Shown: piece after piece, positions 5,476 to 28,561 of the stretch
Numbering within the stretch: position 1 is the first letter of the stretch
Layout: each line of letters opens with the position of its first letter
DNA from: a virus
DNA: 64,000 bases
IMG/VR virus record: IMGVR_UViG_3300005253_002057
Coordinates: 1-64,000 of that record
Reading direction: 5' to 3' (one strand)
Made by a program: the position numbers and the translations under genes
Notes under the pieces: generated by a model
The model's input: only the letters and a program-made list of their open reading frames with translations
What the model was told of the DNA's origin: nothing
The model's database searches: none

Positions 5476-6273
5476 TTAATTTATAAGTAGCTGGAACATG
5501 GCTACTATATCGTTGAAGTCTATCCGAAAGTTATTGTTGAAGTCGAAGAAGAATGTATTCTCAGCCGAGGTTATCTCTGTTGCCTCTGCAGTGAAATTGT
5601 TGAAGAATATAACTATGTCTGCAAAGTCGTGTCTACCATTTGCATTTAAATCTTCTGCTTTTCCATCTCCGTCTATATCCCTTGCTGGGCCTGATTGTCC
5701 AGATATAGTGGGAAAGTCTCCTACTACTTTTATAAAAGTATCTACTGGTGTAGGTAGAAGAGGAGGACCGGCATTGTTAGGATCTACTGTTCTATAGACG
5801 ACAGATACTGTTGCAGTTCCTATGGCTATACCCTTGAGCTCAAGTAGACCAAGGACTATAGGTTCAGTGGGATCTGTGGGCTCAGTGGGATCTGGGGGCT
5901 TGGATAGTACTCCTGTAAAGTCTACTCCTGAGAGATGTACGAGTTTGAAAGTAGGTTGTAGTTCAATACTTGAGATGCCTAAGTTGCTTAGGTCTGCTCC
6001 TACTATGTGAACAGCGTCGACGGAGACGCCGTCATCTATTAGAACAGAGATATTGAAGCCAGCTACTCCTTCAGGAGAGTTGGTTAGTATAATTGGTACT
6101 AGATTGGTCGCTCCTAGCATGATATTAGTGGCGGCTACTTGAATAGTGAATGGTTCTACTTGAGCCTCTGCTTCCTTAGGAGTTAAAGCCCACCAGATAA
6201 AGCCTATCGTTATTACCATTCCTATTACTATAGCACTAACTATGTGGAAGGGACTCGGTGCTGCTTGCTTCAT
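5476..6273 (-). CDS. membrane-anchored cohesin-like plus dockerin-like (EF-hand pair) surface protein
   Basis: N-terminal TM; beta-rich cohesin-like region; C-terminal DIDGDGKAEDLNANGRHDFADIV...FDFNNNFRIDFNDIV duplicated Ca-binding loops. Confidence 0.75.
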   Translation of the reverse strand: MKQAAPSPFHIVSAIVIGMVITIGFIWWALTPKEAEAQVEPFTIQVAATNIMLGATNLVPIILTNSPEGVAGFNISVLIDDGVSVDAVHIVGADLSNLGISSIELQPTFKLVHLSGVDFTGVLSKPPDPTEPTDPTEPIVLGLLELKGIAIGTATVSVVYRTVDPNNAGPPLLPTPVDTFIKVVGDFPTISGQSGPARDIDGDGKAEDLNANGRHDFADIVIFFNNFTAEATEITSAENTFFFDFNNNFRIDFNDIVAMFQLLIN

Positions 6274-6416
6274 TACCTCTCCTTACCTAAAGTGATCTAC
6301 TATGAAACCTATTCCAAAGCCTATTCCTATCATGATTGCCACTGGAGGTATTAACCTAGCTAACCACCAGCCCATTCCATCTATATAGAACTCCTTCATC
6401 TCTGCCCAGTATTCTT

Positions 6417-6836
6417 TCATGGTGCTAGTATCTTCTCCTTGAGTTTTTCAGCAGGAGTTTCATAGATGAATTTGTACATTAGATTCTTTATGTTAAGTCT
6501 CTGAAGTTTAGTTACTTCATTGGTTGGAGTGTTTAGTTGTACAGCAGCTGTGGCTGTATAAAGATCTTGGTCAACTACATTTATTAACTCCATAACTCTA
6601 TCAGCACTTTCAGTGGCTCTGTTAGAGTTATATAGAATTAAGGCGAAGAATTGCACAAGCATGGTCTTCACTTCTGGGCCAGCCTTTACTGTGTTGGTAG
6701 TATGTATAAGGGGGGAAACACCAGGTCTACACCCGCACTGCAAGCAGTACAGAACGTCTGTGTAGGAGGCCATGCTCTTATCGACTTGATAGACATCTCC
6801 TCTGCATCTAGGACACGACTTTAAGAAAAGGCTCAT
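6417..6836 (-). CDS. Zn-ribbon protein fused to a PolA fingers-like fragment
   Basis: CPRC...CLQC; C-terminal DLYTATAA...EVTKLQRLNIKNLMYKFIY resembles Pol I DIHxxTAA...EVTxEQRRxAKxxNFGLIY. Confidence 0.55.
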   Translation of the reverse strand: MSLFLKSCPRCRGDVYQVDKSMASYTDVLYCLQCGCRPGVSPLIHTTNTVKAGPEVKTMLVQFFALILYNSNRATESADRVMELINVVDQDLYTATAAVQLNTPTNEVTKLQRLNIKNLMYKFIYETPAEKLKEKILAP

Positions 6837-7458
6837 GGGGCTTTCCCTTCTGTACTACATAAGTAAATGGAGTTAATATTGAGCCCTGATAGAATTGCTT
6901 TCCTATCATAAAGGCTTCATTTAAAAGCTTTCTTACTTGTTGACCAGTTGGCTCTGTTTCTACTTGCTCTTCAAGCTTAGTAGCTATGGAGCCAATTACT
7001 ATTTCTGATGGTGACCCTAAGACATAGTAAGGGGCAATAGGATCTATGACTGCGTATTTGGCATCTACTGAAAATATCTCCCCCTTGAGAGCTATTAAGA
7101 GTTCCCCCCTCTCTTCTGACTCCTCTAAAATTTCTTCAATTAGCTCTTTGTAGATCTCTATAATATCAAAGGCTACTAGTTTTATTAGCCTCTTATAGTC
7201 CTTGCTGCAGTATAATTTATCTAGTTCTTCCTCCTTCAGTAGTGGTGTGTTACTGAAGCATATCTTTTCTAGCACGTTCTGTTGTACAGCACTTCCTACT
7301 GAAGCAAATGTGACTATGTGATTTCCCTTCTCATCCTGCAAAGAACACAGCTTAGGAGTATGCGCGGCTAGAGAAAATCCTCCGTCTGATACTGAGCAAT
7401 CAGCCATTATGTGTAGGGTGCCGTTAGTCTTTTCTTTGTAAAAAGCTATTAAGGACAA
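6808..7458 (-). CDS. Ntn-hydrolase (proteasome beta/HslV-like) protein
   Basis: N-terminal MSLIA...IMAD...PKL pattern, LLIA..GEIF and YYVLGS (GSG-like) motif. Confidence 0.6.
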   Translation of the reverse strand: MSLIAFYKEKTNGTLHIMADCSVSDGGFSLAAHTPKLCSLQDEKGNHIVTFASVGSAVQQNVLEKICFSNTPLLKEEELDKLYCSKDYKRLIKLVAFDIIEIYKELIEEILEESEERGELLIALKGEIFSVDAKYAVIDPIAPYYVLGSPSEIVIGSIATKLEEQVETEPTGQQVRKLLNEAFMIGKQFYQGSILTPFTYVVQKGKPHEPFLKVVS

Positions 7459-7678
7459 TAAAGTTTCTCCTAGCCGGTTTCTTTTTTAGGCTATATATTA
7501 TCCATGTGAGTCCTATTAAGATTCCAGTTCCTATAAGGGCATACAGTATTATAGCTGGATAGAGAATTCTAGCTGTGTCTATTAAGCTAGCTAGTACTAG
7601 ACCTCCTAAGCTGAAGATTGCAGCTCCTAGTAAGTAGAATCGCTCTGGTCTCCTCAGTATCCACTTTAGTAGCTTCAT
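7424..7678 (-). CDS. membrane protein (2 TM)
   Basis: two hydrophobic helices flanked by basic residues. Confidence 0.55.
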   Translation of the reverse strand: MKLLKWILRRPERFYLLGAAIFSLGGLVLASLIDTARILYPAIILYALIGTGILIGLTWIIYSLKKKPARRNFIVLNSFLQRKD

Positions 7679-7698
7679 GTTTCCCTTCTCAAAGTCCC

Positions 7699-7743
7699 GG
7701 GCTGCAAGCTGCCGGAGGAGAGCACGTCCAATGCTTACAGCCC
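7699..7743 (-). terminator. stem-loop downstream of the acidic ORF
   Basis: GGGCTGcAAGC...GCTTaCAGCCC inverted repeat; no clear U-tract. Confidence 0.4.
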
Positions 7744-7784
7744 AGGTCTTAATACAGAATTGAGATCTTTACTACTGCCTTACC

Positions 7785-8030
7785 TTATACCGAGGCTAAG
7801 GCTGCCAGATGAGATATCTTTACCTTGAGCTGGTCGACTAGATCCTCGGCGTCCGTGATGTCCATGTCCTCCTCGTCTATACCGTTGAGGGCCTTGTCTG
7901 ACAACTCTGCCTTCCAGGTTCCTTCGTCTTCGTCTGAGTCTGAGTCCTCTTCGAAGGTGAAGATGGCGTCCAGAATGGCTAGCTCATTGCGTGAGATGTT
8001 CAATGTTACATCGGCTGAGTTCTGTTCCAT
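7785..8030 (-). CDS. small highly acidic protein (DNA-mimic candidate)
   Basis: 81 aa, D/E-rich (FEEDSDSDEDEG, IDEEDMDITDAEDLVD). Confidence 0.5.
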   Translation of the reverse strand: MEQNSADVTLNISRNELAILDAIFTFEEDSDSDEDEGTWKAELSDKALNGIDEEDMDITDAEDLVDQLKVKISHLAALASV

Positions 8031-8080
8031 GTTTTGTGTTACCTTTCTTCTTGCTGTTGAGGTGTAAGAGTTGTTACTAG

Positions 8081-9913
8081 TTAAGATACAACTGAGTATT
8101 GACTACTTTCTAATGTTACGTCTCCTTCTCTTTCCTTTATGGCTTCTTCTTTCTCGTGATCTATTATCTTTTGTCTTTCTTCCGCATACTCTTGAAGAAG
8201 CTTCTGCTTTCTACCTTTTCTATTTTCTTCTCTAGTCCTCCTCATTTGTACTAGATAATCATAGGTCATAGAAGCAGCACTTTCATCCTCGTCTCTTCCT
8301 AAGGCTCCGGCGGCAGCTGCTTTCTTGAACAGCACTGTTTGTAGTAGTGCGTAGTCCACTGTGTCCAGCCCTTGGAGCTTGGTTACGAGTACACTGTTCT
8401 CTTGTCCTATGCGGTGAAGTCGATCTTCTGTCTGTTCAATGACTGCGCTGTTCCACCAGATGTCCATGAAGACAATGTGGCTTGATGCAGTCAGGGTTAT
8501 TCCTTCTGCTATGTGAGTTGATAGCATACACAGCTTTATACTGTCTACTTCCTGAAACCAGTCTACGTGGTTTGCTCTGGTGTCTCCTTGCTCTCTTCCT
8601 GTTATTCTCACGTAGTACTTTTGATCTTCAGCATCTGTTGGTCGTCTTTGCCAATAAGGCTTCCAGCCCTTCTCCTTTAGGTCTTCCTCTAGTAGAGTAA
8701 AGTAACTGGTGAAGGTGGATGCTACTACTATCTTCTCGTCCGTGTCATCTAGCATATCTAGTAACATTTCTGTCTTGGCCCCTTTACCTAGCTTGTGAAC
8801 TCCTACTAGTCTGGGATCAAGGGCAATCTGCCTGAGTCTAATAAGAAGTGCAAGTATTCCTCCTGCTGATACTCCTTCATCCTCAAGCTCTGCCATTCCA
8901 AATTCTTCCATAGCTTCATATAGAAGCCACTGTCTTGGGTAGTCTTCTTCTATGTCTACTGCTATGGAGTTATGTATCTTATCTGGAAGCTGGGTTAATA
9001 CATCCTTCTTTCTTCTTGCTATCATTCTAGGTTCTAGAAGATCATGCAGCTCTTGCCTCATGTAAGGTTTGAGGCCTCTGAATCTTGAGGCACCGCTTGA
9101 TGTAGTCTGCATGTAACAGAAGTAGTCAGTGAACTCTTTATAGCTATTATTTATTGCTCCTACTAGTCTTAGTAGAGGCCATAAATCTGGGGGCTTGTTT
9201 ACTACAGGAGATCCTGTTGCAAGTATAAATCTTGTGTCATTCTTTGTGCCTGCTAGCTTTAGAATTCCTAAGGTCTGCTTTGCCTTTGGATTTCTGAATC
9301 TATGGGCTTCGTCTATTATTACAAAGTCCCAAGGGATGGCTCCTACTAGCTTGGCTTGATCTTCGTTACGAACCCATTCAGTGTTTACTATAAAGAATCT
9401 AGGAAATTCTGAGGTTATCCATTGTTCTACTGATCTTAGAACTGACTCACCACAGTCCTTTATCTTGTGATCCTTTTGGCCCTTGGAAAATTTCGGGCAG
9501 CACACTGCGTGTATTTCATTTCTCCAAGTTCTCATGAGTGTCTTGGGACATATTACTAGTACCCTTAGTGTAGGCTTAGGATCTAATTGTTCTGCTCGTA
9601 ACACAGTTTCTATTGCTTGTACTGTCTTACCTAGCCCCATCTCGTCGAATAGTAAAGTGCTATGTCTGTTACTCATGAACTCTACCCCTTCCTCTTGGAA
9701 AGGGAACAGTGTGTAGTTACCTAGTGTTTTATTTTCCTCTTCTATAGGTACACCTAGTAAAGAGGTGTCGTAGCGTATTATGTCAGTGGAGCTCTTAGGT
9801 CTAAAACCAAATCTCTCTAGCATCTGATTTCTGTTATAGATATCTTCCTTAGTGAAGGGCGCAGGTTCGTAAGATCCACCTACTGAGTGGGTACTCCATA
9901 TGTGCATAGGCAT
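8081..9913 (-). CDS. SNF2-family helicase/ATPase
   Basis: DEMGLGKT, DEAH, ATGSP, EGITL and QTEDRLHRIGQ motifs. Confidence 0.95.
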   Translation of the reverse strand: MPMHIWSTHSVGGSYEPAPFTKEDIYNRNQMLERFGFRPKSSTDIIRYDTSLLGVPIEEENKTLGNYTLFPFQEEGVEFMSNRHSTLLFDEMGLGKTVQAIETVLRAEQLDPKPTLRVLVICPKTLMRTWRNEIHAVCCPKFSKGQKDHKIKDCGESVLRSVEQWITSEFPRFFIVNTEWVRNEDQAKLVGAIPWDFVIIDEAHRFRNPKAKQTLGILKLAGTKNDTRFILATGSPVVNKPPDLWPLLRLVGAINNSYKEFTDYFCYMQTTSSGASRFRGLKPYMRQELHDLLEPRMIARRKKDVLTQLPDKIHNSIAVDIEEDYPRQWLLYEAMEEFGMAELEDEGVSAGGILALLIRLRQIALDPRLVGVHKLGKGAKTEMLLDMLDDTDEKIVVASTFTSYFTLLEEDLKEKGWKPYWQRRPTDAEDQKYYVRITGREQGDTRANHVDWFQEVDSIKLCMLSTHIAEGITLTASSHIVFMDIWWNSAVIEQTEDRLHRIGQENSVLVTKLQGLDTVDYALLQTVLFKKAAAAGALGRDEDESAASMTYDYLVQMRRTREENRKGRKQKLLQEYAEERQKIIDHEKEEAIKEREGDVTLESSQYSVVS

Positions 9914-9916
9914 AGG

Positions 9917-10258
9917 CTAGCGGGCTCCTATCTTATCACGTTCTTTCTTTACAACCTCTGCTACTTTCTTGGTAAGAATATAATCCTTCTTTTCATTTCT
10001 ATATACATGATATGTTGCTGGTTTAGTGGAATTGAATTGTCTTATAAGTACTAGATTTTCTGATCCTGTAGAAGTACTAGCCCCTCCTTTTAGTAATAGG
10101 TTTCTATTTACTAGCAGTCCAAAGGACTCTAGTGTTATACAAAACTCTGTTGATTCCTTTAGATGTTTAATTACAGCTCTGGTAGTAGCATCTAAAAGGT
10201 GAATATTTATTAGTGTGCCATCTTTAGTTAGTAACTGTTTGAGTAATGATTTTGGCAT
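9917..10258 (-). CDS. hypothetical protein, first gene of a leaderless transcript that includes the helicase
   Basis: ATG lies 7 nt downstream of a consensus -10 box. Confidence 0.6.
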   Translation of the reverse strand: MPKSLLKQLLTKDGTLINIHLLDATTRAVIKHLKESTEFCITLESFGLLVNRNLLLKGGASTSTGSENLVLIRQFNSTKPATYHVYRNEKKDYILTKKVAEVVKKERDKIGAR

Positions 10259-10264
10259 TGTTTA

Positions 10265-10293
10265 ATTATACACCATTTTTGATGCCCTGTCAA
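10265..10293 (-). promoter_or_regulatory. sigma70-type promoter
   Basis: TTGACA-17 nt-TATAAT on the minus strand, intergenic. Confidence 0.9.
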
Positions 10294-11393
10294 GTCGTCT
10301 TTTGATTATGATCTTATTGTTATGGCTTCTCTTCATCTTCTTTTAGAAGAGCATTTCCTGGGCTGCCAGCTTTAAGCCATCTGTAGAAGACACCGATCAT
10401 TCTGGTCTTAAAGTCTTTATTGGGTATACTCATTCTATAGGTGCTTGCTATCTCGTAGCTTGGAAAGTCTACATCCCCAGCAACTTCTAGTAATGACTCT
10501 AGGCTAGTGTTTGAATAGTATCCAGGACATTGTCTTGTAGCTTGCCCTTTTATAGGAGAGGATACTGATAACTCTGGGTCATCATCTATATGGAAGTGTA
10601 CAGGAGGGGGCAAGCTACACTTCGTTTGTAGTTTAATAAATCTCGCTTCCAGACTACGCTGCATGTTGTCAGTCATCTGCTTCTCCTAGATCATTACATA
10701 ATTCTGATTACTTTTTTCGGTATGCGTGAAAAGAAGTCTTGTCAGACCTTTTACTATCTTCCAGAGCGTCTCTGTATCCCTGTTCATGTCCTCGCTTGTA
10801 TTTTTCCTCTAGTTCAAGAGTAATGGGTCTTCTAAGTTTTATAGATATTGCTATATAGAACACTCCTGCTACGAGTACTGTGCTTACTGTTACACAGAGA
10901 GCAACTAGAACTAGAAGGGGAATGGAGATGGGCTCAATTATATACATCTACACTCCTGGCTGATCTATTAAGTCTCCTAGACCATTACATCCTTCTGACT
11001 TGCAAGTTATAAGATGTGCATCTACTCCACACTCAAATGTTTCTCCCTCTATGTTCTGTTTAATTTCTCCGCAGGAGGCTGCTGCAGATACTCTACATGG
11101 ACAGTACCCTCTGTCTTCTATTACAATTTCTTTTCTTCTTTGTCTTCTTTCTCTATAATGCCTGAACAGAGACCAGGATGTTATTAGCCAGAACAGTATG
11201 GCGCTTATGTTTACTAGACTATTAACTACTTCTTCATAGATCATAGTGCTAGTCTGTCGTTATTATGTAATTTGAAGACCATTACTTTCTCCTGTGCCAC
11301 AAGCTGTATAGATAGTCTGTTGCTGTAGTTATTATTATGCCAATTCCCACTCCTAGTAATAGAAAGCTTACTTCCCTAGACCACATATCTATA

Positions 11394-12371
11394 CTAGTCC
11401 GTTGCTAACACACAGATTGCATACGCCCATAAGTCCCACCTCTGTCCTGAGCTGCTTCCGTTGTTTACTGCCCTAACTCTCCAACCTCTACCGTCTAGTG
11501 CTGGAAAGTTCTCCAGTATACTTATGTTGGGTATATTAGCTACTAGGCCGCCTCCGGTTACTACTCTTGGAGCAGTGCACTCTGCTTCTAGTGACTTAGT
11601 AACACTCTTAGTTAAATCACTAGCTAGTACTCTTTCCCAGCCTTCTAAGGGTCCTGAGTTTCCAGTGGAGCCCTTGTCCCCTTCTTTACCTCTTAAGCCT
11701 CTAGGTCCTGTTGGTCCTCTTTCTCCTGTGTCTCCTTTATCTCCAGCAGGTCCTATCTTTCCTGTTTCTCCAGGCTCACCTCTAGGTCCTCCTGGCTCTC
11801 CAGAGTCTCCTTTGAATTGTAATCTTATTTTAGATGGTACTGAGTCTGGTAGGTCTTCCCAGGTTAAATCTTCTGGTGTTATTATCTCTGAAGGCCAAGG
11901 GCTAGGGCCTAATTCTAGGGTTGAATAAAATCCAGCATACAGCTGAGGTATATCTAAAGACTCTACTGGGTCTAGAACCTCGTACTCTACACTTTCTAAT
12001 TCTATTATTCTTGTTTGTAGAGCATATAGTTGATCTTGTAAATCTTTCTCCACGTTTGTGTTGCTGTGAGTGTGGTTCAAGATGGTGTCTTCCATAAGAT
12101 CATCCACTAAGGAATCTAGGTAGGTTAGATCTATTGCTCCTACAGCTCCAGGCACTCCTGGATTCCCTGGCTGTCCTTGAAGTCCTATGGCTCCTCTAGG
12201 ACCAGGTTCTCCTTGAGCTCCTTGAGGCCCACTTGTAGGAGACCTACTAGGTTCAGCTAAGCAAGCTCCTGTAAGCCCTACTATTGAGGTGATTAAGAAT
12301 AGTAGTGTTACTGGCCACTTGAGTTTATGGTAGTTCAATAAAAACCTCGTCCTTATCATTCCTGAGTCCAT
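11394..12371 (-). CDS. collagen-like (G-X-Y) putative lipoprotein
   Basis: hydrophobic leader ending LTGAC (lipobox-like), two GXY tracts, C-terminal C...VTGGG...W.V.A...YAIC domain. Confidence 0.8.
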   Translation of the reverse strand: MDSGMIRTRFLLNYHKLKWPVTLLFLITSIVGLTGACLAEPSRSPTSGPQGAQGEPGPRGAIGLQGQPGNPGVPGAVGAIDLTYLDSLVDDLMEDTILNHTHSNTNVEKDLQDQLYALQTRIIELESVEYEVLDPVESLDIPQLYAGFYSTLELGPSPWPSEIITPEDLTWEDLPDSVPSKIRLQFKGDSGEPGGPRGEPGETGKIGPAGDKGDTGERGPTGPRGLRGKEGDKGSTGNSGPLEGWERVLASDLTKSVTKSLEAECTAPRVVTGGGLVANIPNISILENFPALDGRGWRVRAVNNGSSSGQRWDLWAYAICVLATD

Positions 12372-12837
12372 AGTTACTTAGGTAGGTGAAGGAGTCTCTT
12401 ATCCATAGTGCGTCTTGAAGGGCGTTGTGTTTATCTTTGGACTGTTCTGGGAATCTAATATCTCCTAGTAACATAGAGATCTGTTTCAGGTCATAACAAT
12501 ACTTAGGCCAGGTTGAAGGTAGATTTAACATTCCTCCGTATAGTCTACATAGTACTACCCAGTCGTAGGCTGAGAAGTATCCATAGAATACTGGATTCTT
12601 ATCCTTCTCCATCCAGCGGTGTAAGTGGTATCTTATTTGACTAAGAGTTTCTCTAGCAACTGTAGGAGCAAGTTGAGGGATTACATTCTCCATTAGCCAG
12701 GGGTTGTTGATTGGAGGAGTGAACTCACTGGATATAGCGTAGAAGCATCTACTATCTTCTGATACTACTGCTATAGATATTAGTTCTATTCCTCCCTTAG
12801 CATGCTCGTTGAATTCCGTGTCGAAGAAATATCTCAT
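12325..12837 (-). CDS. DEDD 3'-5' exonuclease (RNase AS/Rv2179c-like)
   Basis: start re-called at MRYFFDTEF (overlaps the upstream stop); LISIAVV, AYDWV, HNALQDA motifs. Confidence 0.88.
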   Translation of the reverse strand: MRYFFDTEFNEHAKGGIELISIAVVSEDSRCFYAISSEFTPPINNPWLMENVIPQLAPTVARETLSQIRYHLHRWMEKDKNPVFYGYFSAYDWVVLCRLYGGMLNLPSTWPKYCYDLKQISMLLGDIRFPEQSKDKHNALQDALWIRDSFTYLSNYGLRNDKDEVFIELP

Positions 12838-13720
12838 CTTACATCTACTCCTAGATCTACTCTTCCCTCTTTCTCTTTCCAGTGCCAGCCGTGTTCTTCG
12901 ACTATTCCTATGGCATAAAGATGTCTGGGCTCTACTATCTTTATAGCCACAGCAACTGATATGGCTTCTTCTAAGCTTACTGAAGTAGTGAATTTTAGAT
13001 AAGGTGAATAAGCTTTGGGATCTATGTCCCCATCTGCTGCCCAAGCGGAGAAGTATATTGTGAAGATAGATTCCTCTGCCGTAGTTAGTACTGGTACTGG
13101 TCTCTCATCGTACTTCTTTATACAAGTACGACAGTTTACCTTTGATATATCTGTGGTTATATAGTGCTTGTGAACAGCTAGTCTTCTGCAGAGGGTACTT
13201 GCTCCCTTAGCATAGTGAGTTCTTGGAGTCATTGTCTTAACCTCCTCAGTCTACTTGGAATCCTTTAGAGTTCTTTAGATATAGCTCGAATTCTTCCTTG
13301 ATGTTGCAAGTGGTACAGTCTAGTTCTGCTATGTAGTCATGGTTTACTCCCTTTGCTTGGGACTTAAGTTTCCACTTAGAAGGATGTCCTTTGGAGCATG
13401 GAACTAGTTCGCTTGCCCTCTCTACTACTCTTGTAATCATTTCTATTCTTGTCTCATGCGATCTTTTATTTCTGTAAGGCCACAGTTGCATTGGCTGTCC
13501 ATAGGACAGTTGGACAAGTGGCCTCCATACTTTAGTAATGCCAGTCTTAGTTCTAAGTTGGTAGGGGGCTTAGTTTTACTATTTATCCTGTCTTCACGTT
13601 CCTGGCCTTCCCTCATTGAGTCTCTTAATTCTTTTCTGAAGACGTTCATGCTACCTCCTTCAAGACTTGGTAGGTATTGGTGGCCTGAAAATAAGTTTTC
13701 TTTTCCGTTATACCAGACCA

Positions 13721-14356
13721 TTATCCTAACAGTCTTTCTAGTTCTGCCGCCAGCTCGGGATCATCTTTCAGCTTGGCTGCTAAACCTGCAAGCTTATCTG
13801 GCATCTCTTTTTTTACTCTAGTCTTTTTCTGCTTGGACTCATGCTCTCTTAGTCTCTCAGAAGTAAGCTCATGGTATAAAGGTCTGTAGTGCATTACTAG
13901 TTCATGCTTACCATTGTTCTCTACAAAGTACTTGCACTTGTGAGCTTCGCAACTAGCTCCATCTCCAGTGGTACAGTCTGTAAAGAATAGAAGACAATCT
14001 ACGCATTGATAGATAGAGCCTCTTCCAGGCATAGTAGGGAGTTCTAAGGCTAGCTTAGATGGGTGTGGAATTCCTTTGTCGAAGTGAGGGTGTGGATTAG
14101 AAAGTATGTAAGGGCACTCCCAAGGTATTACTCTAAACATCTCAGTGTTAGAGGCTTCTACTAGCTTTACTACATCCAAGTCACTTACGGCTTGAGTAGG
14201 AAGATTCTCGTAATACTCTACTGATTCTATTCGTATGCCCCTTGCTACAGATTCTCCTTTGGAGAAAGGTTTTACTGATGCTCTAGCAGACTTAAGGCAA
14301 GGGATTGCTTGTTCTCTTCTAGTATGTACTTCAAGACACACTGGACAGCTATTCAC
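13721..14356 (-). CDS. Cys/His-rich hypothetical protein
   Basis: CPVC, CVDC and CEAHKC putative Zn ligands. Confidence 0.45.
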   Translation of the reverse strand: MNSCPVCLEVHTRREQAIPCLKSARASVKPFSKGESVARGIRIESVEYYENLPTQAVSDLDVVKLVEASNTEMFRVIPWECPYILSNPHPHFDKGIPHPSKLALELPTMPGRGSIYQCVDCLLFFTDCTTGDGASCEAHKCKYFVENNGKHELVMHYRPLYHELTSERLREHESKQKKTRVKKEMPDKLAGLAAKLKDDPELAAELERLLG

Positions 14357-14943
14357 TCAGTCCCTCCCTTGTCTGCTAGGGTCTCAAACAGGCCTGGGTT
14401 CTGCTCAAACAACTCCTCAAACTTTTCCTCAATGTTTGGATTGAGTTCTGCTATCCTTTCTATTCTCTTTGTGTTTTCCCTCATCTGTCTTCTTGCCTGC
14501 TTATCTCTTAAGGTTTGAAGCTGCTCAGGAGTTAACTGTCTTTCCCTTACTGCTTCTGCAGCTTTTAGTATCTCTATGGGTGTCCAGATGTTTGAGCACT
14601 CTAAGCACTCTCTTCTGGCTACTTCAAAGCTTGCTTTACGTTTGGAGTTTCTTCTGGCGCATTTTGGACAGAGAAATTTTGTGGCTCCTTCAGCATATAG
14701 TAGTAGTTTCTTATCTACTAGCTTGTGTACTTTACGTCCTTCTTCATCCTCAAATGGGACTGTCTCAAAGGTGAAGACGTGCTTACATACAGTGCAAATT
14801 GAATAGTGTTCGTTTGATCTATCGTCTGTATAGTTTATAGAGAAGATTTGATCTAAGGCCTCTGGGTCTTCACATACAGGGCAGGTTACCTTACCCAGGT
14901 TATAGCTTAGCGGTAGATTGGCCTCTGCCATAGTTCCCTCCAA
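14353..14943 (-). CDS. double Zn-ribbon protein
   Basis: four CxxC pairs (CPVC, CTVC, CPKC, CLEC). Confidence 0.6.
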   Translation of the reverse strand: MEGTMAEANLPLSYNLGKVTCPVCEDPEALDQIFSINYTDDRSNEHYSICTVCKHVFTFETVPFEDEEGRKVHKLVDKKLLLYAEGATKFLCPKCARRNSKRKASFEVARRECLECSNIWTPIEILKAAEAVRERQLTPEQLQTLRDKQARRQMRENTKRIERIAELNPNIEEKFEELFEQNPGLFETLADKGGTE

Positions 14944-15199
14944 GTATAGCTGCTGGCTTGTAAATTAGAAAAGTCTCGTGGGTTGAGTGTAAAGTTTGAT
15001 CTTGCTCTCCTTTATTTTTTCCAGCACTTGATCTCTTAAGTCTCTAAGCCGGGTGGCAGATATGTTTCCTAGCCTCCTCTGTCTTGTAAGTGAATTCTCA
15101 AGAGAAATTATTCTTCTTTGAAGTAGACTGATCTCGTTGTCCTTGGTAGCCACAGCCCTCTTAAGAATGCCTTCTTCTACTAGGTCCATATCATTCTCC

Positions 15200-15811
15200 T
15201 TACTGTAGGGAGCTAAAAGGTACCATTAGGTACTGGTTTGTTATGCTACAATCGGTACAGAGTATACCTCCTGAATCCATTTCTTCCTGGTAATATACTT
15301 CTGTTAGCTCAATGTTTCTTCTAGCATTGCAGTTAAGACATACCATGTCGTAGGACTTTAGTACATCTATTGTTTCAAGGAGTAACTTGACTGTGCTGGC
15401 AAAGATTCCAGGGTTACGACTTTCTCTGTTACCAGCTACATTAAGTATGTGTACAGCGTTTATTCTAAGCCAGGCCCTTAGGTTCTCTGGTGTGGGATTC
15501 TCTGTCCAAGGCTTTCCTTCTTGTATGCAATAGCGTCGTGTTAGTCTAGAGCCAGGGCTGGAAGAATTGCCTGTTAGTAATGTACCATCACTATCTTGTA
15601 CATTAAGTTTAGTTCTAATTGGATAGGTTCTGGGGTCGTAAGGTCCTGCTACTAGTCCATAGGAAACTAATAGAGGTTTCTTGTAGCCATCTTCGGTCAT
15701 CCAGTTATAGGGTGCTGTTCCTCCTGTTTCTAATTCCAGTGCTGCTGCAGCTTCTAGACCAGCCATGTCAGCCCCTGTTTGACCCCCAGATATTATCTTA
15801 CTTGGATACAT
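15200..15811 (-). CDS. SLOG-superfamily ('putative molybdenum carrier') protein with C-terminal Zn ribbon
   Basis: KIISGGQTGAD, RTKLNVQDSDGTL, LNVAGNRES motifs; CLNC...CTDC. Confidence 0.88.
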   Translation of the reverse strand: MYPSKIISGGQTGADMAGLEAAAALELETGGTAPYNWMTEDGYKKPLLVSYGLVAGPYDPRTYPIRTKLNVQDSDGTLLTGNSSSPGSRLTRRYCIQEGKPWTENPTPENLRAWLRINAVHILNVAGNRESRNPGIFASTVKLLLETIDVLKSYDMVCLNCNARRNIELTEVYYQEEMDSGGILCTDCSITNQYLMVPFSSLQ

Positions 15812-15813
15812 CT

Positions 15814-18800: not shown

Positions 18801-21630
18801 GCTGGTCTTCAGTCAGTCCGTAGCCGGGTTCTTTAGTCATGGCTAGACCTGCACCTTCTTTATTCTTGGAGTTTTCTCCGTGTGTTCTCCATAGACTTCT
18901 CTTGAGTCCCAGCCTATGTCTGCTAGATAAATAACTGCTGGCCCTTGCCTTATTGTCCAATCAATAGTGGCTATCACCTCGCTTTCCTGCAAATTATTTT
19001 CTGCACGATAAGTCTCCATCTCCGACAGGAGCTTGTTCACTTGTCTTATTGTCCAGTTCTTCATCTATACCCCCTCGTCTGCTTACTTAAAGTGGCTAGT
19101 AGCTTAGGTCAAGAAGTGCTAAGGCTTCCAGCTCGTCGTCTGCTGTAGGAAACTCTGCCGTTCCTTCGTTTATAAGGGCCGCTACTTGATCGATAGTGAC
19201 TGGTCTTACAAAGGCTACGCTTTCCCCCAGTTCGGTGAGTCTCCTCCTAGCTTTCTCTTCATCTTCAGCTCTCACTAACCAGAAAACCTCCTCGTCCGCT
19301 CCCACTTTGTAGAACTGTAGATGAGCCTTTCCAGATTGCTTGTCTATCATTGCTTGCTCTCCTTCTTTAGACTCATTGCTATCCGTGGTGTCCGCATCCG
19401 ATGCTGCTTTCCTGCTCTTTTTCGAAGTCGAAGGAATGAAGACAGAGTAGACCTGGAGATTGCTCGGAAAGTGTCTTAAGAGTCTGCATCATTTCTTCTA
19501 GAGGTCTCTTCTTACCGTCAGCAGTTTTCTTGGCTAGATTAACGGTAAGTACTACAGAGTTATCTGTCTCAGATACGTTTACTACTAGCTCGGCGTAGGC
19601 TAGTTCCTGGTTGTTGAGAAAGATGCTTCTACAGAAGGGACACTTGCTGCTTCCCTTTTCTCCACACTTAGTGCAAGCTACCTTTGCCATCAGAGCACTC
19701 CTTTATTTCTTCCCTTTACTCAATCATGCTAAGTGTTACTGGCTCAAACCAAGCGTAGCCACACTCTCTGTCTGAGCAGTATATGACTTCCTCTCCGACG
19801 TATCCACCTCCTGACAGAAGCAGTCCTTTGCATGTAGGGCACCTAGCCTCAGGTCTTCCATGCACTCGCTGGTAGGCCTTATCGAACTGGGTCGTGGTAA
19901 GTCCTGTTATGTGCTCAAAAAGCTTGTACACGTCTTTTGATGAGTGTTCCTGTGATTCATCTAGCCTAAAAAGCTGTGCTCCTGCTTCTGTAGCTTCTAG
20001 CCACATTGCTAGTCCCTCATGTAGCGTGATCCTTCTAAGATCTACGTACATAATTCTCTCAGTGTAGCTGTAGGGATCGTGCTGAGAGCCCTCACTACCA
20101 TGCTGCATATCTAGGCTTCTCATGCTTGCTCCTTTCTACTCCTAGTATCCACCCAGTATCTCAAAGGAGAGCTTGTGAAAAGATGCTGTGAGATACTAGA
20201 GGGAGTCTTTGAGCTGAAGAGTTCTTACACTCGGCTTCTTCTCCCAAGAGTGCATAAGCTATTCATATTGTAGGTCTCCCTAAATCTACGTCATTATTAC
20301 CTCCTTTATACCTGCCCGTCTGCTTTAGCCCCTACGTAGGCCCAGGTTCTTTGAGCCTCTCTATAAGACTTTAGCATCTCATTGCACAGATGCATAAACT
20401 CCATCCACTGGTGACAGTATATGCAGTGAACTGTATATCTATTACCCAGACTAGTTTTCACGCTACTCCTTAGCTGTTTATGCAGATGAAAGCAAATTGC
20501 TCAGGGCTTTTCGTTTCCAGAATGCCTTCCATAGCTCCTTCTGAGAATTGCCCTATGAGCTTGTACTCTGTGGAGGCATTCTCCTCCATGCGCTTGCCAG
20601 CTACTAGGTCCATTAGCAGGCTATAGGCCTGGCTAGGGTCCTCAGCCTGTACAAGCCAGTCTCGCTCCCCTTCTGGGCTAAGCTCAGTTATCTGTACAAA
20701 CACTCGCTTGCTCCTTATGTCACTCGTCTGCTAGATGATTCCCCAGATGGATTCTTCTGTAGCCCCCAGCATCTCTTCTATGCCAGAGTGCACTGCTCCT
20801 GAGTCCCCTTCTTCCAGCTCGAGCTTCCAGCTCTGAAGCTGACTACGAAGAGCCTTACGAGCACCTTCGTATAGGCGGGCCCGTTCAGCAGCTTCAAACT
20901 CCCTAGCCTCTTGCTTTTCTGCGTGCTTAAGCATAGCTTCCCTGGATTTGCTACACACTTGCTTGCTCCTTTGCTAGCTGGCTGGCTATTCTTCTTCTTC
21001 TAGGTCAATGTGGGTCTCTGGGTCAAGCTCATCGAGCATGTCTGATAACCACTCAGGTGTCATTAGCGGTGACTCCTATCCCTAGCGTCTCGGTGTCTTG
21101 GTCTGTTGCTTGCTAGCTCATGCCCCTGCCGGTAGCGGTTTAGGGTTGCTTATGCTCCGATGCCGTGACTACTCGTCGTCTTCGTCTGTCTTGCGGTCCT
21201 TACCCCTGAGCTCGACGACTCCCTGCTCGACCAAGATCCGCGTGTTCGCTACAGCGTTCTCGCCTTCCTCTGCGAACTCGACTACCAGCAATTCTATGGC
21301 TGCTGACAACCTTGCTCTCAAGCCGGTGTACTGCTCGGTCTTGCGGACCTGATTCCAGGTGGTGACCCTCAGCCTACGCTCGTGGTCTCCCCCTGCTTTT
21401 GCGGCTGGTGCTATCAGCACGCGACGCATGGCGCTCTGCTTCTGGATTTGAGCTATGCGTTTCTCATCGGCCTCTTTCGTGCTGATGCTGTACTGGGCCA
21501 TAGCTACAAGCGCGTCTGGCGTCATGTGGATTGCTTCCGCTGCGGCTTGTAAAGCCTCTGGGTCGCTCTCCTGCGCTGCTAGCACTTTTTCCGCCATGTC
21601 TGCCATGTCTTGTGTCTGTACGTCTGCCAT
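15814..21630 (-). other. cluster of small early/host-takeover hypothetical genes
   Basis: about 20 co-oriented short ORFs with strong GGAG Shine-Dalgarno sites; no recognisable domains except Zn fingers. Confidence 0.65.
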
Positions 21631-23030: not shown

Positions 23031-23059
23031 ATTATACACCCTTTTTTGGATGTTGTCAA
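23031..23059 (-). promoter_or_regulatory. sigma70-type promoter
   Basis: TTGACA-17-TATAAT on the minus strand. Confidence 0.9.
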
Positions 23060-23417: not shown

Positions 23418-23446
23418 ATTATAACGTATATATAAGGTAAGGTCAA
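23418..23446 (-). promoter_or_regulatory. leftward sigma70-type promoter
   Basis: TTGACC-17-TATAAT on the minus strand. Confidence 0.85.
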
Positions 23447-23456: not shown

Positions 23457-23485
23457 TTGACAGTGGTGTGTTTCTGGTGTATAAT
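23457..23485 (+). promoter_or_regulatory. rightward sigma70-type promoter
   Basis: TTGACA-17-TATAAT. Confidence 0.9.
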
Positions 23486-23491: not shown

Positions 23492-23923
23492 ATGAGTAAG
23501 ATATCAGTGAAAATAAAATATCTAAGTCCGCAGGCAATACTACCAGTTTTAGCCACTTCAGGAAGTGCATGCTTTGATGTAAGTACACCTTATCATGTAG
23601 TTATACTAGGAAGGAGTATGGCCAAAGTAGGGACTGGGTTAGCCTTCGAAGTTCCAGTAGGCTATGAGATGGTTATAAGACCAAGGGGAGGATTATCTAG
23701 TAAAGGTATTACTATAGCTAATTCTCCTGGTACTTTAGATAGTGACTATAGAGGTGAGCTTTTTATTATTCTGCATAATACCACAATGGAGCCTTATCAA
23801 TTTACTCCTGGAGCCAGAATAGCGCAGATTGCTGTAAAGAAAGTTTTAGAGATAGAGTTTCTAGACCTGCCTTTTACTGATACAGAGAGAGGTATAGGAG
23901 CCTTTGGTAGTACAGGAGTATAG
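23492..23923 (+). CDS. dut: trimeric dUTPase
   Basis: GSACFD, RPRGG, NSPGTLDSDYRGE, RIAQ and RGIGAFGSTG motifs; start re-called at the leaderless ATG 23492. Confidence 0.96.
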   Translation: MSKISVKIKYLSPQAILPVLATSGSACFDVSTPYHVVILGRSMAKVGTGLAFEVPVGYEMVIRPRGGLSSKGITIANSPGTLDSDYRGELFIILHNTTMEPYQFTPGARIAQIAVKKVLEIEFLDLPFTDTERGIGAFGSTGV

Positions 23924-24477: not shown

Positions 24478-24487
24478 GGCTGTGAAC

Positions 24488-24516
24488 TTGACATTTATAC
24501 CACATTCATATACAAT
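24488..24516 (+). promoter_or_regulatory. sigma70-type promoter of the replication/modification operon
   Basis: TTGACA-17-TACAAT. Confidence 0.85.
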
Positions 24517-24544
24517 GTATGGACAGTCGAAATTGGAGAAATAG

Positions 24545-25582: not shown

Positions 25583-25609
25583 CCCCAAGAATTGTTACAA
25601 GGAGGTAAC

Positions 25610-26032: not shown

Positions 26033-26088
26033 AGTTTAACACCGGTGCTGTAGCCTCAGCCCTATCTTTTGATTTAGGATAAAATTAA

Positions 26089-26805
26089 GTGAAAAGTCTT
26101 GTAATGTTAAGTGGAGGACTAGATTCAAGTACTAGTCTTGCTCGAGCTATTAGTCTTGGAGATAAGTGTGAAGCACTTTTTATTGACTATGGACAGCGCT
26201 CCTTAGTTGAGTATGAGTCTGCTGAGCTTATAGCTGAATACTATAAAGTAAGACTTGTTCCTGTAGAGTGCAGAGGGATGCTGCTTAAGTCATCTCTTAT
26301 AAAGTCTGACAGTAATGAACTAAAGGAATTCTCAGTAGATGATGAGTTTACTGCTGAGGGTGATGCTTATGTACCAGGTAGAAACTTGATGCTAGTAGGT
26401 ATAGGCTTAGCCTATGCAGAGTCAAGAAAGATGGATAGATTACTACTAGGTATAATGGGTGTTGAAGAAGAAGATGAAGACGACCCTATCTTAAAAGATC
26501 AACACCCTAAGTTTCTAAAAGCAGTTGAACAAGCTGCACTCTTTGCTAAAGATCCAGTTAAAGTAGATAGTTTATTACTTGATCTTACTTGGAGAAGGCA
26601 AGTTATAACTTTAGCAGCTGAACTAAAAGTTCCTCTAGGTTATACTTATTCTTGTTACTGGGGAAAGCTAGCACACTGTGGTACTTGTGAGGCATGTGTA
26701 ATTAGAATTTTATCTTTTAAGAGGGCTGGATATAAAGATCCATCCAGATACTCAGAAGAACAGGAATGGGAAGGATGTAAAGAATGGCCAATAGAGCTAC
26801 AGTAA
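26089..26805 (+). CDS. queC: 7-cyano-7-deazaguanine synthase
   Basis: SGGLDS, DYGQR, YVPGRN, TYSCY...HCGTCEAC. Confidence 0.95.
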   Translation: MKSLVMLSGGLDSSTSLARAISLGDKCEALFIDYGQRSLVEYESAELIAEYYKVRLVPVECRGMLLKSSLIKSDSNELKEFSVDDEFTAEGDAYVPGRNLMLVGIGLAYAESRKMDRLLLGIMGVEEEDEDDPILKDQHPKFLKAVEQAALFAKDPVKVDSLLLDLTWRRQVITLAAELKVPLGYTYSCYWGKLAHCGTCEACVIRILSFKRAGYKDPSRYSEEQEWEGCKEWPIELQ

Positions 26806-27224
26806 GTTATAGCTGGGAATTCTCAGCAGCTCATAGACTGATGAATCACCCTGGTAAGTGTAAGAGACTTCATGGTCATAACTATTATGTCACCATAGAA
26901 GTAGAAGGAGCTATGGATAGAGAAACTGGAATGGTGATTGACTTCTCTATACTTAAAGACGCATCCAGGCATGTAGACGAGATTATGGATCATATGACTC
27001 TTCTACAAAGTACAGATCCTGTAGCAGAAGCCCTTGCTACTATTCAGCTAGAGGGAGATATAGTCTTCTTTTCAGTTCCTCCTACAGTCGAGGCTATATG
27101 TGTACTAGTAGGAGAAGAGATTAAAATTGCCTTATCTAAGTACTCCCCTGCAACTACTTATCCTCGACTTACTAAGGTCATTATAAAGGAAACAGAGACT
27201 GGAGTAGCAAGCATAACATTATGA
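26784..27224 (+). CDS. queD: 6-carboxytetrahydropterin synthase
   Basis: FSAAHRL...GKCKRLHGHNY, GMVIDF, PTVE, ET motifs. Confidence 0.95.
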   Translation: MANRATVSYSWEFSAAHRLMNHPGKCKRLHGHNYYVTIEVEGAMDRETGMVIDFSILKDASRHVDEIMDHMTLLQSTDPVAEALATIQLEGDIVFFSVPPTVEAICVLVGEEIKIALSKYSPATTYPRLTKVIIKETETGVASITL

Positions 27225-28561
27225 GTTTAACAAGAACAAGATTAACATTTCTTATGGTTTTCGGTGTTCTCAGTCTAGTATTACTTACTGCATGTACTAC
27301 TGATGCTAGTAGAATTCGTGAGGCTAATAAAGCCTTTCGAGGGATAACAATTCCTGTTATTTCTACCCCTTCTATTCCTACCCCTTTTATTGTACCTTCT
27401 ACTGGATCCTCATATGTTGAAGCTTATCCTGTATTTGACAATCCTCAGTTTCCGACTATAGCTCCTTCAACCTCTATTCCTATTCCTACATCTTCCCCTA
27501 CTAGTATTCCTACATCTTCTCCTACCAGCATCCCTACACCTTTCCCTACTTCTACTAGTGTTCCTACTTTAACTCCGCCTACAGCTACTTCAGTTCCTTC
27601 TACACCTACACCTCCTCCTATAGAAGCGGATATATCTGCTACTAGTTTGGAGGATGGAGACTGTGCTCGTAGTAACTTTACTGATGATGAAATACTTAGT
27701 GGTAATACTGTTAAGTTTTATGACTTCGTGCTTCTACCGTGTGACGGTCCTTGGCAATTTCGAGTAGTTTCGTCGTTTCTAGTAGAATTAGATGCTGGTT
27801 ATATTGGTTATCCGAGCGACGAGAAGTTTATGAGTCTAGCCCAGGATAACTGCAAGCGTACGTATACGCTTCCCTTTTTCCCATTGTTTGAGAGCTGGAG
27901 GCTTGGTGATAGAACAGTTCATTGTATACAGATGGATATGGGTATAGCTCATTCTGACTTTGCTAGACTAGATAATATTATTGACCCCTACTTAGTTAAA
28001 GTAGAAGAATGCTTTAATGAGCTAGATGAGGGACTGGCTTATGAAATTCTATCGTGTGCTGGAGAATGGCAGTATCGTATAGTAGAAATTATAAGTCTAG
28101 CCTTGCTAGAAGAATTTCCAGGTGATGAGTATATTTGGACCAGAACACTTCAAGACTGTGATCGAAGAAGTTCTATGTATTTTCTTCCTACCCACGAGAC
28201 TTGGATAGATGAGGGTGCTCGTCTTATCTATTGTGCTCAGGGAGGGCAAGGTCTAAGTGGCTATAGCCTGGAGCGAATAGATCGTATTGTTGGCGAGTAT
28301 AAGCTTAATGCTGGAGAGTGCTATAATGAGGATACCAGCTATGCTTCTCCCTTAGTTGAAATAGTAGCGTGTGATGGCCCTTGGGAATATAAAATTCTAG
28401 ATAGGCTTATACTAGATAGAGATGGACTGTATCCGGAAGATTTATACTTTGATACTGAAGTATTTAATCGTTGTAACCGTTTCTATGACTACTCTTTGTC
28501 CCCTACTCAAGAACGCTGGGAAGCAGGAATTAAGTATATTCTATGTATTCAAGAAAGATAA
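27221..28561 (+). CDS. lipoprotein with Pro/Thr linker and four septum-formation-like Cys repeats
   Basis: LTAC lipobox; PTS repeats; repeated C-x-G-x-W-(Q/E)-(F/Y)...(Y/F)P...C...P...W...C units. Confidence 0.75.
   Translation: MSLTRTRLTFLMVFGVLSLVLLTACTTDASRIREANKAFRGITIPVISTPSIPTPFIVPSTGSSYVEAYPVFDNPQFPTIAPSTSIPIPTSSPTSIPTSSPTSIPTPFPTSTSVPTLTPPTATSVPSTPTPPPIEADISATSLEDGDCARSNFTDDEILSGNTVKFYDFVLLPCDGPWQFRVVSSFLVELDAGYIGYPSDEKFMSLAQDNCKRTYTLPFFPLFESWRLGDRTVHCIQMDMGIAHSDFARLDNIIDPYLVKVEECFNELDEGLAYEILSCAGEWQYRIVEIISLALLEEFPGDEYIWTRTLQDCDRRSSMYFLPTHETWIDEGARLIYCAQGGQGLSGYSLERIDRIVGEYKLNAGECYNEDTSYASPLVEIVACDGPWEYKILDRLILDRDGLYPEDLYFDTEVFNRCNRFYDYSLSPTQERWEAGIKYILCIQER

Follow-up and report, generated by a model that had tools for sequence, protein, structure and literature searches.

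The stretch of DNA analysed here, hereafter the window, is the left 64 kb (positions 1 to 64,000) of the virus record IMGVR_UViG_3300005253_002057, a single contig of 88,157 bp. The contig has a GC content of ~0.41, is without a terminal repeat, and has its genes directed leftward up to ~23.4 kb and rightward beyond that point. Its complete DNA is present in two small sequencing runs of 2015 labelled marine sediment metagenome, and parts of it are seen in other sediment and marine metagenomes. Among its products are a lipoprotein with septum-formation-like repeats, a dockerin-bearing surface protein, a small membrane protein related to the capsid proteins of archaeal spindle-shaped viruses and a Zot/pI-like assembly ATPase (Table 1). 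A preliminary description of the window had proposed that the host belongs to the Chloroflexota, in the vicinity of Dehalococcoidia and SAR202. We find four independent lines that point the same way, namely the lipoprotein, the dockerin subtype, the place of the thymidylate synthase ThyX in a phylogenetic tree, and the fact that the capsid protein and ATPase are homologous to genes of the IME1 elements integrated in Dehalococcoides. Because of these, a peptidoglycan-free, S-layer-bearing, low-GC member of Dehalococcoidia, in or near the marine SAR202-related radiation, appears to be the most likely host of this double-stranded DNA virus, and we consider this assignment probable.

The lipoprotein gene seems to be the strongest of the host markers. 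Its product combines a signal peptide ending in the lipobox LLTAC, a linker of ~80 residues rich in proline, threonine and serine (the PT linker) and three repeats that match the Pfam family Septum_form (PF13845; E 3.4e-9, 37 bits against a gathering score of 25), which bears out the architecture given for it earlier. Homologs are few: only seven were recovered from 5.8 billion proteins, and the sole named one, IIC83_07265, with 53% identity, comes from a Chloroflexi metagenome-assembled genome (MAG). A whole-genome search recovered a cellular homolog (E 1.7e-59) in the Dehalococcoidia MAG G001, which also supplies the best match of ThyX (see below). This homolog shares with the viral protein the lipobox, the conserved motif after its cysteine and the layout of three repeats, and it is flanked by ordinary metabolic and housekeeping genes. 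Further cellular homologs are found in G411, G494, G470, G415 and G423, the last of these (42.5% GC) lying in a cellular setting among purA, dapA/B, pnp and rpsO. Among the relatives of G001, 6 of 101 genomes match the lipoprotein at E <1e-15. The relatives of the SAR202 MAG G002 largely coincide with those of G001, G001 itself included, and the family can therefore be placed in the SAR202-related part of Dehalococcoidia. Outside it no domain-level match was obtained in 400 evenly drawn other Chloroflexota, in 251 Actinomycetota genomes or in 101 genomes of the Candidate Phyla Radiation (CPR), the last set giving a single weak match limited to the PT linker.

The surface protein, which starts with a membrane anchor, had been described as uniting a cohesin and a dockerin. 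Its C-terminus displays a DxDxDG-type repeat pair, which Pfam scores below threshold (Dockerin_1, E 0.042), and the region of residues 182-262 aligns at E 4e-11 to 2e-9 with three large surface proteins of Dehalococcoidia, in their C-terminal part that bears a dockerin, the partner in the genome G119 containing CARDB, Big_13 and Dockerin_1 domains. Searches with this query gave matches in 3 of 201 Dehalococcoidia genomes as against none of 201 CPR genomes. While the dockerin half of the description is thus solid, the cohesin half draws on softer evidence from neighbours in the ESM Atlas: Pfam reports no Cohesin match, and a feature search of the Atlas groups the protein with small cohesin/dockerin proteins (score 0.96; 200 of 256 features), its structure neighbours bearing cohesin domains (TM 0.43-0.68). 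Taken with the lipoprotein data, these searches show that the only cellular relatives identifiable for the lipoprotein and for the dockerin module lie in Dehalococcoidia. The families had been described as common in that class; they prove to be rather rare, but restricted to it. The adjoining gene codes for the KSCPRCxGD...CxQCG zinc ribbon as quoted earlier, its product beginning with MSLFLKSCPRCRGD...CLQCGC and giving Pfam matches below the cut-off to Lar_restr_allev (E 0.002) and DNA_pol_A (E 1e-5); a match to Zn_ribbon_IS1595 (E 1.3e-4) was recovered from a pooled set of open reading frames (ORFs), the carrier of which is not named in the output. The ribbon carries no taxonomic weight as a host clue.

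The virion genes center on a small protein with two hydrophobic helices. Used as a single sequence, its ORF (34936-35196) recovers the VP1 protein of the spindle-shaped virus SSV19 from the PDB (7xdi_A; phmmer E 3.8e-5), the entry 7XDI being cited in the SSV19 structure paper (PMC9351363). A profile of 29 family members finds the same protein at E 1.2e-9 over nearly its full length, as the only PDB match under E 1. The protein further matches phrog_11172 (E 4.9e-5), a family that includes SSV1 VP1 (10.64898/2026.09.15.751708). With the Pfam family His1_capsid (PF25665) the window protein scores 22 bits (E 1.6e-4), below the gathering score of 27, and 10 of the 29 members match that family at E <=0.01, the best at 2.1e-5. 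An exhaustive search collected 54 relatives, mostly 64-72 residues in length, and since nearly all of them align from Met19 of the window ORF, the gene probably starts at that codon (34990). The alignment of the 29 members displays the pattern LIG..IA.VVGV.L.P...loop...LLPI.., that is, two hydrophobic helices around a short polar loop. Given that SSV19 VP1 is the sole PDB match under E 1 and that phrog_11172 is matched as well, we identify the protein by homology as a member of the spindle-virus capsid superfamily, which comprises SSV1/SSV19 VP1 and His1 VP21.

The ATPase follows two further small genes of the assembly module, and this pair is conserved in four related contigs (L184, L190, L192 and L195; tblastn). 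In the window 10.8 kb separate the ATPase gene from the capsid gene upstream of it, whereas in L184 the two are adjacent; the order PolA then capsid recurs in L189, L191 and L194, and the order capsid-ATPase-membrane protein is seen elsewhere among the relatives. Metagenome contigs yielded 26 loci with a related capsid gene in all, mostly in SDBT, SDBU and SDBV and in Ga0114919 and Ga0114925 records, with SDBT01000286.1 as one of the relatives, the relatives being 39-77 kb long and including contigs of 76.8 kb and 39 kb. The IMG/VR database gave no relatives with the 712-residue protein, with PolA, with ThyX above 50% identity or with the capsid protein, the 29 aligned capsid proteins proving too divergent to yield a search pattern. 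Deposited phages are distant at best (ThyX <=45%, PolA <=27%, no match for the capsid protein). One relative, the 39-kb L195 (Ga0114919_10000247), carries at 18922-20181 a Zot-like ATPase of 420 residues with an intein after the P-loop domain (PT-HINT E 2.4e-7; Intein_splicing E 5.6e-6), along with a GerE/LuxR regulator. Pfam scans that took in essentially all ORFs of at least 50 residues on the 88-kb contig, leaving out three ORFs that cross locus borders and those under 50 residues, recovered no terminase, portal, HK97-fold capsid or integrase family, and no peptidoglycan hydrolase (lysin) family either, in line with the earlier reading that no such hydrolase is encoded. In the structural block at 35-57 kb only the Zot-like ATPase and the phrog_11172 capsid protein matched Pfam or PHROG families, no tail genes being among the matches; hence the hallmarks of Caudoviricetes are not seen. 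No tRNA genes were found in the contig or its relatives.

A comparable pairing of ATPase and capsid protein has been described in Dehalococcoidia. The IME1 elements of Dehalococcoides mccartyi and Dehalogenimonas are 21-28 kb long, integrated or episomal, and code for a pI-like ATPase, after which come small membrane proteins whose nearest matches are SSV1 VP1 and phrog_11172. The elements abound in viromes, their preparations contain filaments and vesicles, not spindles, and the authors propose that they are budding or filamentous double-stranded DNA (dsDNA) viruses, restricted to Chloroflexota so far (bioRxiv 10.64898/2026.09.15.751708, Oct 2026). We searched 301 Dehalococcoidia genomes, the only class covered here, with a capsid profile and with an ATPase profile built from the window protein and two relatives, and the latter found matches in four of them. 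One of these, G101, gave three identical matches, which agrees with the three IME1 copies that the preprint reports for D. mccartyi 195, and we infer that it is this strain. At its IME1 locus the ATPase profile matches with E 3.4e-9 and the capsid profile recovers a nearby membrane protein of 89 residues (E 5.2e-5). In G119, a low-GC (~41-43%) Dehalococcoidia MAG of 1.5 Mb that also carries one of the dockerin matches, the two profiles match adjacent genes of an integrated element beside hflX/miaA (capsid E 2.6e-7). By hhalign, the window capsid family aligns over 73 columns with a profile of four IME1-type proteins (probability 94.9%, E 4.7e-8). Together these matches show, at the level of sequence profiles, that the capsid protein and ATPase are homologous, if distantly so, to IME1 morphogenesis genes of Dehalococcoides and of another Dehalococcoidia genome. 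The integrated IME1-like element of G119 (L216; G119:C42:20000-39999) has two VP1-like proteins of 151 and 158 residues, an ATPase of 282 residues and two secreted proteins of 1033 and 1148 residues.

VP1-like budding viruses in Dehalococcoidia have thus been proposed before (10.64898/2026.09.15.751708), and the present genome resembles IME1 in possessing the same virion module, a pI/Zot-like ATPase with two-helix membrane proteins of the SSV1 VP1/phrog_11172 kind, in having large secreted or membrane proteins downstream, in being without tailed-phage hallmarks or a lysin, and in its proposed host class. It departs from IME1 in size, at 88 kb or more, and in replication and integration: IME1 integrates by means of a tyrosine recombinase and also codes for a serine resolvase and an archaeal-type primase-helicase, whereas our Pfam scans of the 88-kb contig recovered none of these families. 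The contig encodes a UDG-PolA fusion, an SNF2 helicase, ThyX and a dUTPase, along with genes for a 7-deazaguanine pathway and a glycan cluster of 20 kb, and its capsid protein is nearer to archaeal VP1 in sequence than the 'structural matches' reported for IME1. What appears to be new is accordingly a genome three to four times larger than IME1, with its own PolA and with 7-deazaguanine and glycan genes, as well as a capsid protein whose homology to an archaeal spindle capsid protein of solved structure can be read directly from the sequence.

The expression signals indicate that the host is a bacterium. The contig contains seven perfect TTGACA-N17/18-TATAAT sites, six of them inside the window, where dinucleotide-preserving shuffles lead one to expect 0.03; all seven are on the coding strand of their arm, and in five the -10 box has a TG extension. 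At five of the seven the ATG lies 6-9 nt past the -10 box, in agreement with the leaderless genes noted earlier, which carry no taxonomic weight as a clue to Chloroflexota. Leaderless mRNAs of bacteria have this spacing, which cannot be reconciled with a TATA box of archaeal type near -26. In many internal genes AAGGAG precedes the start codon by 6-10 nt, and Pfam identifies bacterial-type genes for an OmpR-type regulator (Trans_reg_C), a LuxR/GerE regulator, a Bac_transf sugar transferase, a Wzy_C protein and the UDG-exonuclease-PolA fusion. On the strength of the sigma-70 promoters, the AAGGAG sites and these genes we identify the host as bacterial. The relatives, totaling 138 kb, display no clear excess of promoters, with six 11/12 matches and one perfect site, the latter in the near-identical contig L179.

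ThyX offers a further view of the affinities of the virus. A single-sequence query found no match among species-representative genomes, and the nearest relatives are metagenome proteins with 56-72% identity; two homologs, at 56% and 51%, are encoded on contigs of 70-73 kb. An alignment-based search of the species-representative genomes gave as best match, at 49%, the Dehalococcoidia MAG L001, which is the same genome as G001. A quick maximum-likelihood tree placed the virus and its metagenome relatives on the side that holds all Chloroflexota, CPR and Hydrogenedentota, and the branch that parts this side from Actinomycetota, Desulfobacterota and the archaeal ThyX clade has a support of 96 by the SH-like approximate likelihood-ratio test (SH-aLRT). 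The taxonomy of the top match therefore agrees with the proposed host, but by a narrow margin that does not discriminate by itself, and we regard ThyX as compatible with a Dehalococcoidia host and not as deciding. The UDP-GlcNAc dehydrogenase (contig 78895-80157; L081 14895-16157) is 88% and 82% identical to relatives encoded on two ENA contigs, 15 kb and 4.8 kb long, and close strains of the virus therefore exist in other assemblies; below these viral relatives identity levels off near 50%, where two of the names give a taxon, one being an Anaerolineae MAG and the other an unclassified 'bacterium'. Tetranucleotide correlation with the virus is only suggestive as a host signal: among cellular loci it is highest for that of G423 (r 0.50), and the top value overall, 0.78, belongs to L003.

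L003 is a contig of 13 kb with ThyX, SNF2 and small acidic proteins that resemble those of the window. It is binned in G1212, a 4.1-Mb MAG named 'uncultured archaeon binchicken_co85_74', which contains at least two virus-like contigs and looks contaminated with viral contigs. The second of these, C1, is 111 kb long and carries (84000-111280; L221 and L222) ThyX, a DpdA-like gene, UDG-PolA, a ribonucleotide-reductase-like gene and RecA-like genes. Because the bin also holds this 111-kb contig, the archaeal binning of L003 is weak evidence. Similar mis-binning has been described for IME1 (10.64898/2026.09.15.751708).

Several observations weigh against a Dehalococcoidia host. Whereas the virus has 41% GC, the genomes that match its lipoprotein best are at 57-67%, and the viral lipoprotein is only 35-38% identical to the cellular copies, so that any transfer of the gene would be old. 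ThyX has near ties at 43-48% in Desulfobacteraceae, Solirubrobacterales, CPR, SAR202 and several archaea. The UDP-GlcNAc dehydrogenase is nearer to an actinobacterial copy (51%) than to that of G423 (44%), and the Bac_transf protein likewise does not discriminate among phyla. The two ESM Atlas clusters nearest to the surface protein have the CPR (Minisyncoccota) as their commonest phylum. The likeness to IME1 is distant, the ATPases sharing ~32% identity over 104 residues and the capsid matches reaching 16-23 bits with a high composition bias, the scores being inflated by hydrophobic composition. L003, a probable relative in view of the ThyX and SNF2 common to both and its r of 0.78, is binned in an archaeal MAG. 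No CRISPR spacer match was found in a DNA search of window positions 1-20000 against five genomes, nor was a close provirus found, the capsid profile giving one marginal match in the 301 Dehalococcoidia genomes. A 32-bp match to a Saccharibacteria MAG, considered as a spacer, was rejected as a chance similarity with no CRISPR repeat nearby.

These points can be assembled into three other hosts, of which an archaeon of marine sediment, from a lineage such as Asgard, Bathyarchaeia or DPANN, would fit all known viruses of this capsid type. The capsid family is otherwise archaeal (SSV19 VP1, His1), a capsid of this kind occurs with a Tubulavirales-like ATPase in the spindle viruses of Asgard archaea (10.64898/2026.08.12.739948), archaeal ThyX proteins reach 45-48% identity, and L003 sits in a bin of archaeal name. 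That bin, however, holds several virus-like contigs, the ThyX tree sets the archaeal clade apart from the virus, the lipoprotein has its cellular homologs in bacteria, and the virus itself combines seven perfect sigma-70 promoters and their leaderless ATGs with OmpR- and LuxR-type regulators, Bac_transf, Wzy_C and PolA, which makes an archaeal host very improbable. A host in another bacterial phylum, CPR included, deserves more credit and is nonetheless unlikely as a whole. CPR/Patescibacteria (Minisyncoccota) of sediment are small, low-GC cells with frequent small cohesin/dockerin surface proteins, and the Atlas clusters just mentioned, the ThyX proteins of Vogelbacteria (48%) and Saccharibacteria (46%) on the virus side of the tree and the GC content of some CPR loci (0.40) would all suit them. 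Yet the dockerin query matched none of the 201 CPR genomes, the lipoprotein search found only the PT-linker match among 101 such genomes, and the sole CPR match in the DNA search was the chance 32 bp. CPR bacteria generally retain peptidoglycan, which fits poorly with a virus in which no lysin was found. We rate this host as improbable.

Slightly less improbable, and still unlikely, is a host in some other phylum such as Actinomycetota, Desulfobacterota or Bacillota, the Dehalococcoidia-like genes being old horizontal acquisitions. Most of the Septum_form family is actinobacterial, a Solirubrobacterales copy of the UDP-GlcNAc dehydrogenase shares 51% identity with that of the virus, many ThyX matches at 44-47% come from Solirubrobacterales and Desulfobacteraceae, and identity to the Dehalococcoidia genes is only 35-49%. 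On the other side, the lipoprotein is absent at the domain level from the 251 Actinomycetota genomes, the quick ThyX tree parts the virus from Actinomycetota and Desulfobacterota with 96 SH-aLRT, a lysin-less virus in a walled host would need a different exit route, and four unrelated genes, those for the lipoprotein, dockerin, capsid and ATPase, all lead to Dehalococcoidia. Best matches do not fall consistently in another phylum or in archaea. A Dehalococcoidia host thus remains the reading that we favour.

The envelope of these bacteria is in keeping with such a host. The preliminary description had named Dehalococcoidia as monoderms reported to lack peptidoglycan and had suggested that an archaea-like envelope could explain how a budding spindle-type virus exists in a bacterium. 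The penicillin-binding protein transpeptidase domain (PF00905) is absent from all five Dehalococcoidia genomes linked to the virus (G001, G411, G119, G797 and G101) and present in 10 wall-bearing control bacteria. Each of the five has one gene of the Mur-ligase family, which is also found in both archaeal controls. Peptidoglycan loss has been described for Dehalococcoidales, the marine radiation and SAR202 isolates (PMC10284905, PMC10444878), and the SAR202 isolates encode no peptidoglycan synthesis, have an S-layer-like coat and encode archaella (PMC10444878). The lack of peptidoglycan noted earlier is borne out for these five genomes, and the suggested permissive role of the envelope is consistent with the domain counts, the literature and the absence of a recognizable lysin from the virus.

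We propose that the capsid protein would be inserted into the host cytoplasmic membrane and accumulate there, and that the ATPase might drive assembly and extrusion or budding through an envelope of membrane and S-layer without a murein sacculus, for which reason no lysin would be needed. The host-like lipoprotein, the cohesin/dockerin protein and the glycan cluster (64-84 kb) could remodel or mimic the host surface, with superinfection exclusion, attachment and glycosylation of virion proteins as possible uses.

Judged from the genes, the virion might be spindle-shaped or pleomorphic and would be released without lysis, and the likenesses of the virus to known virus groups are partial. The Fuselloviridae (SSV1, SSV19; PDB 7XDI, PMC9351363) share with it a homologous major capsid protein, a membrane-based virion module and the absence of lysis genes; they differ in having Sulfolobales archaea as hosts, where the present virus has bacterial promoters, PolA-based replication and a genome five times larger. 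The Asgard viruses NMV3 and the wyrdviruses also pair a spindle-type capsid with an AAA/Zot-like ATPase (10.64898/2026.08.12.739948), and the halspivirus His1 is linked through the His1_capsid signal in 10 of the 29 members of the capsid family; His1, the Thaspiviridae and the Asgard spindle viruses, however, have archaeal hosts and genomes of 15-30 kb, and the present virus encodes an intact PolA. The Inoviridae/Tubulavirales resemble it in their Zot/pI-type assembly ATPase and small hydrophobic coat proteins, and are unlike it in their single-stranded DNA genomes of 4-11 kb and an unrelated coat protein. As general background, fusellovirus genomes are ~15-17 kb and carry an SSV-type integrase, and replication in His1 and the thaspiviruses relies on a protein-primed PolB. 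For budding of a bacterial virus from a host without a wall, the textbook example is the plasmavirus L2 of Acholeplasma; with a genome of 12 kb, it is likened to the present virus by the lifestyle proposed here.

Whether the contig and its 39-77 kb relatives, alike in the gene order of capsid, ATPase and PolA, make up a family of their own, with large dsDNA genomes and budding virions of spindle or pleomorphic shape, whose members infect peptidoglycan-free marine Dehalococcoidia and share capsid ancestry with Fuselloviridae and Halspiviridae is a proposal that we hold in even balance. If it is true, a spindle-virus morphogenesis module would have passed between domains and reached bacteria whose envelope (membrane and S-layer, even archaella) became archaeal in type by convergence, and would there have joined a bacterial-style toolkit for replication and DNA modification. 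To our knowledge the spindle shape has been regarded as a morphotype found only in archaea and usually explained by the archaeal envelope. That explanation would become testable, as the architecture of the host envelope and not domain membership would decide which virion types are possible. The IME1 lineage would likewise be extended to large, apparently autonomous genomes with a polymerase, 7-deazaguanine DNA modification and glycan synthesis. Dehalococcoidia are abundant in marine sediments, yet we know of almost no recorded viruses for them, and the lipoprotein and dockerin genes would provide concrete host markers for this virus group in such sediments.

The features of the window are collected in Table 1. 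The queE-like gene probably starts at Met49 of the ORF beginning at 28422.

Table 1. Genes and promoters of the window discussed in the text
Feature	Position	Strand	Basis
thyX, ThyX thymidylate synthase	4276..5079	-	Pfam Thy1 E 2.8e-43
Surface protein, 265 aa: N-terminal membrane anchor, beta-rich cohesin-like middle, C-terminal dockerin	5476..6273	-	Pfam, ESM Atlas
CPRC...CLQC zinc ribbon fused to a fragment resembling PolA fingers	6417..6836	-	Sequence read, sub-threshold Pfam
TTGACA-N17-TATAAT promoter, TG extension, leaderless ATG 6 nt downstream	10265..10293	-	Perfect consensus
Sigma-70 promoter of leftward arm	23031..23059	-	Perfect consensus
Sigma-70 promoter of rightward arm, back to back with 11/12 promoter at 23446(-)	23457..23485	+	Perfect consensus
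dUTPase	23492..23923	+	Pfam dUTPase E 9.8e-21; leaderless from promoter 23457-23485
queC and queD, 7-deazaguanine pathway, adjoining lipoprotein gene	26089..27224	+	Pfam QueC E 7.6e-38, PTPS E 2.4e-29
Lipoprotein with Septum_form-like repeats	27221..28561	+	Pfam
queE-like radical SAM gene and folE	28566..30290	+	Pfam Radical_SAM, Fer4_12; GTP_cyclohydroI E 4.2e-52
TTGACA-N18-TATAAT promoter inside queE region	29106..29135	+	Perfect consensus
UDG, 3'-5' exonuclease and family A DNA polymerase fusion, directly 5' of capsid gene	32140..34869	+	Pfam
Putative major capsid protein, spindle-virus type, 68 aa from Met19	34990..35196	+	PDB, profile
Sigma-70 promoter 5' of assembly operon (44962 onwards)	44924..44952	+	Perfect consensus; kept in near-identical metagenome contig L179
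Pair of small genes of the assembly module, encoding a membrane protein (180 aa) and a second protein (159 aa)	44962..45987	+	Kept beside ATPase in relatives
Zot/pI-like P-loop assembly ATPase, 178 aa	45988..46524	+	Pfam AAA, Zot; phrog_1979, Zot-like and M13 protein I families
Sigma-70 promoter, leaderless ATG 6 nt downstream	62045..62073	+	Perfect consensus

At the far right of the contig, positions 88128-88157 consist of a Nextera adapter (CTGTCTCTTATACACATCT...) into which the final ORF runs; this terminus is an artefact of assembly, and more of the genome may follow, the record being possibly incomplete. Near the left end, positions 506-847 code for a lone PEP-utilising-enzyme mobile domain of 113 residues (Pfam E 5.3e-28), without a catalytic partner nearby. 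The pooled Pfam scan of late ORFs contained a TSCPD-domain match (E 5.5e-12), the carrier of which is not named in the output; it is likely to be the 111-residue ORF at 63322-63657, which aligns to the C-terminal part of a 684-residue ORF on the G1212 contig C1. The latter is probably ribonucleotide-reductase-like, and no reductase gene was seen in the virus contig. Beyond the window, a 652-residue ORF at contig 75783-77741 has no Pfam match at E <=0.01.

The glycan cluster occupies contig positions 64000-84000 and comprises two UDP-sugar dehydrogenases, an epimerase, the Wzy_C protein, two FkbM methyltransferases and the Bac_transf domain, here fused to a large membrane domain, in addition to Glyco_trans_4_4 and Glyco_trans_1_4 signals. 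A cluster of such a kind is unusual in a non-tailed virus. Three ORFs in or beside it (63662-64534, 66751-67707 and 82914-83921) have a conserved C-terminal motif in common.

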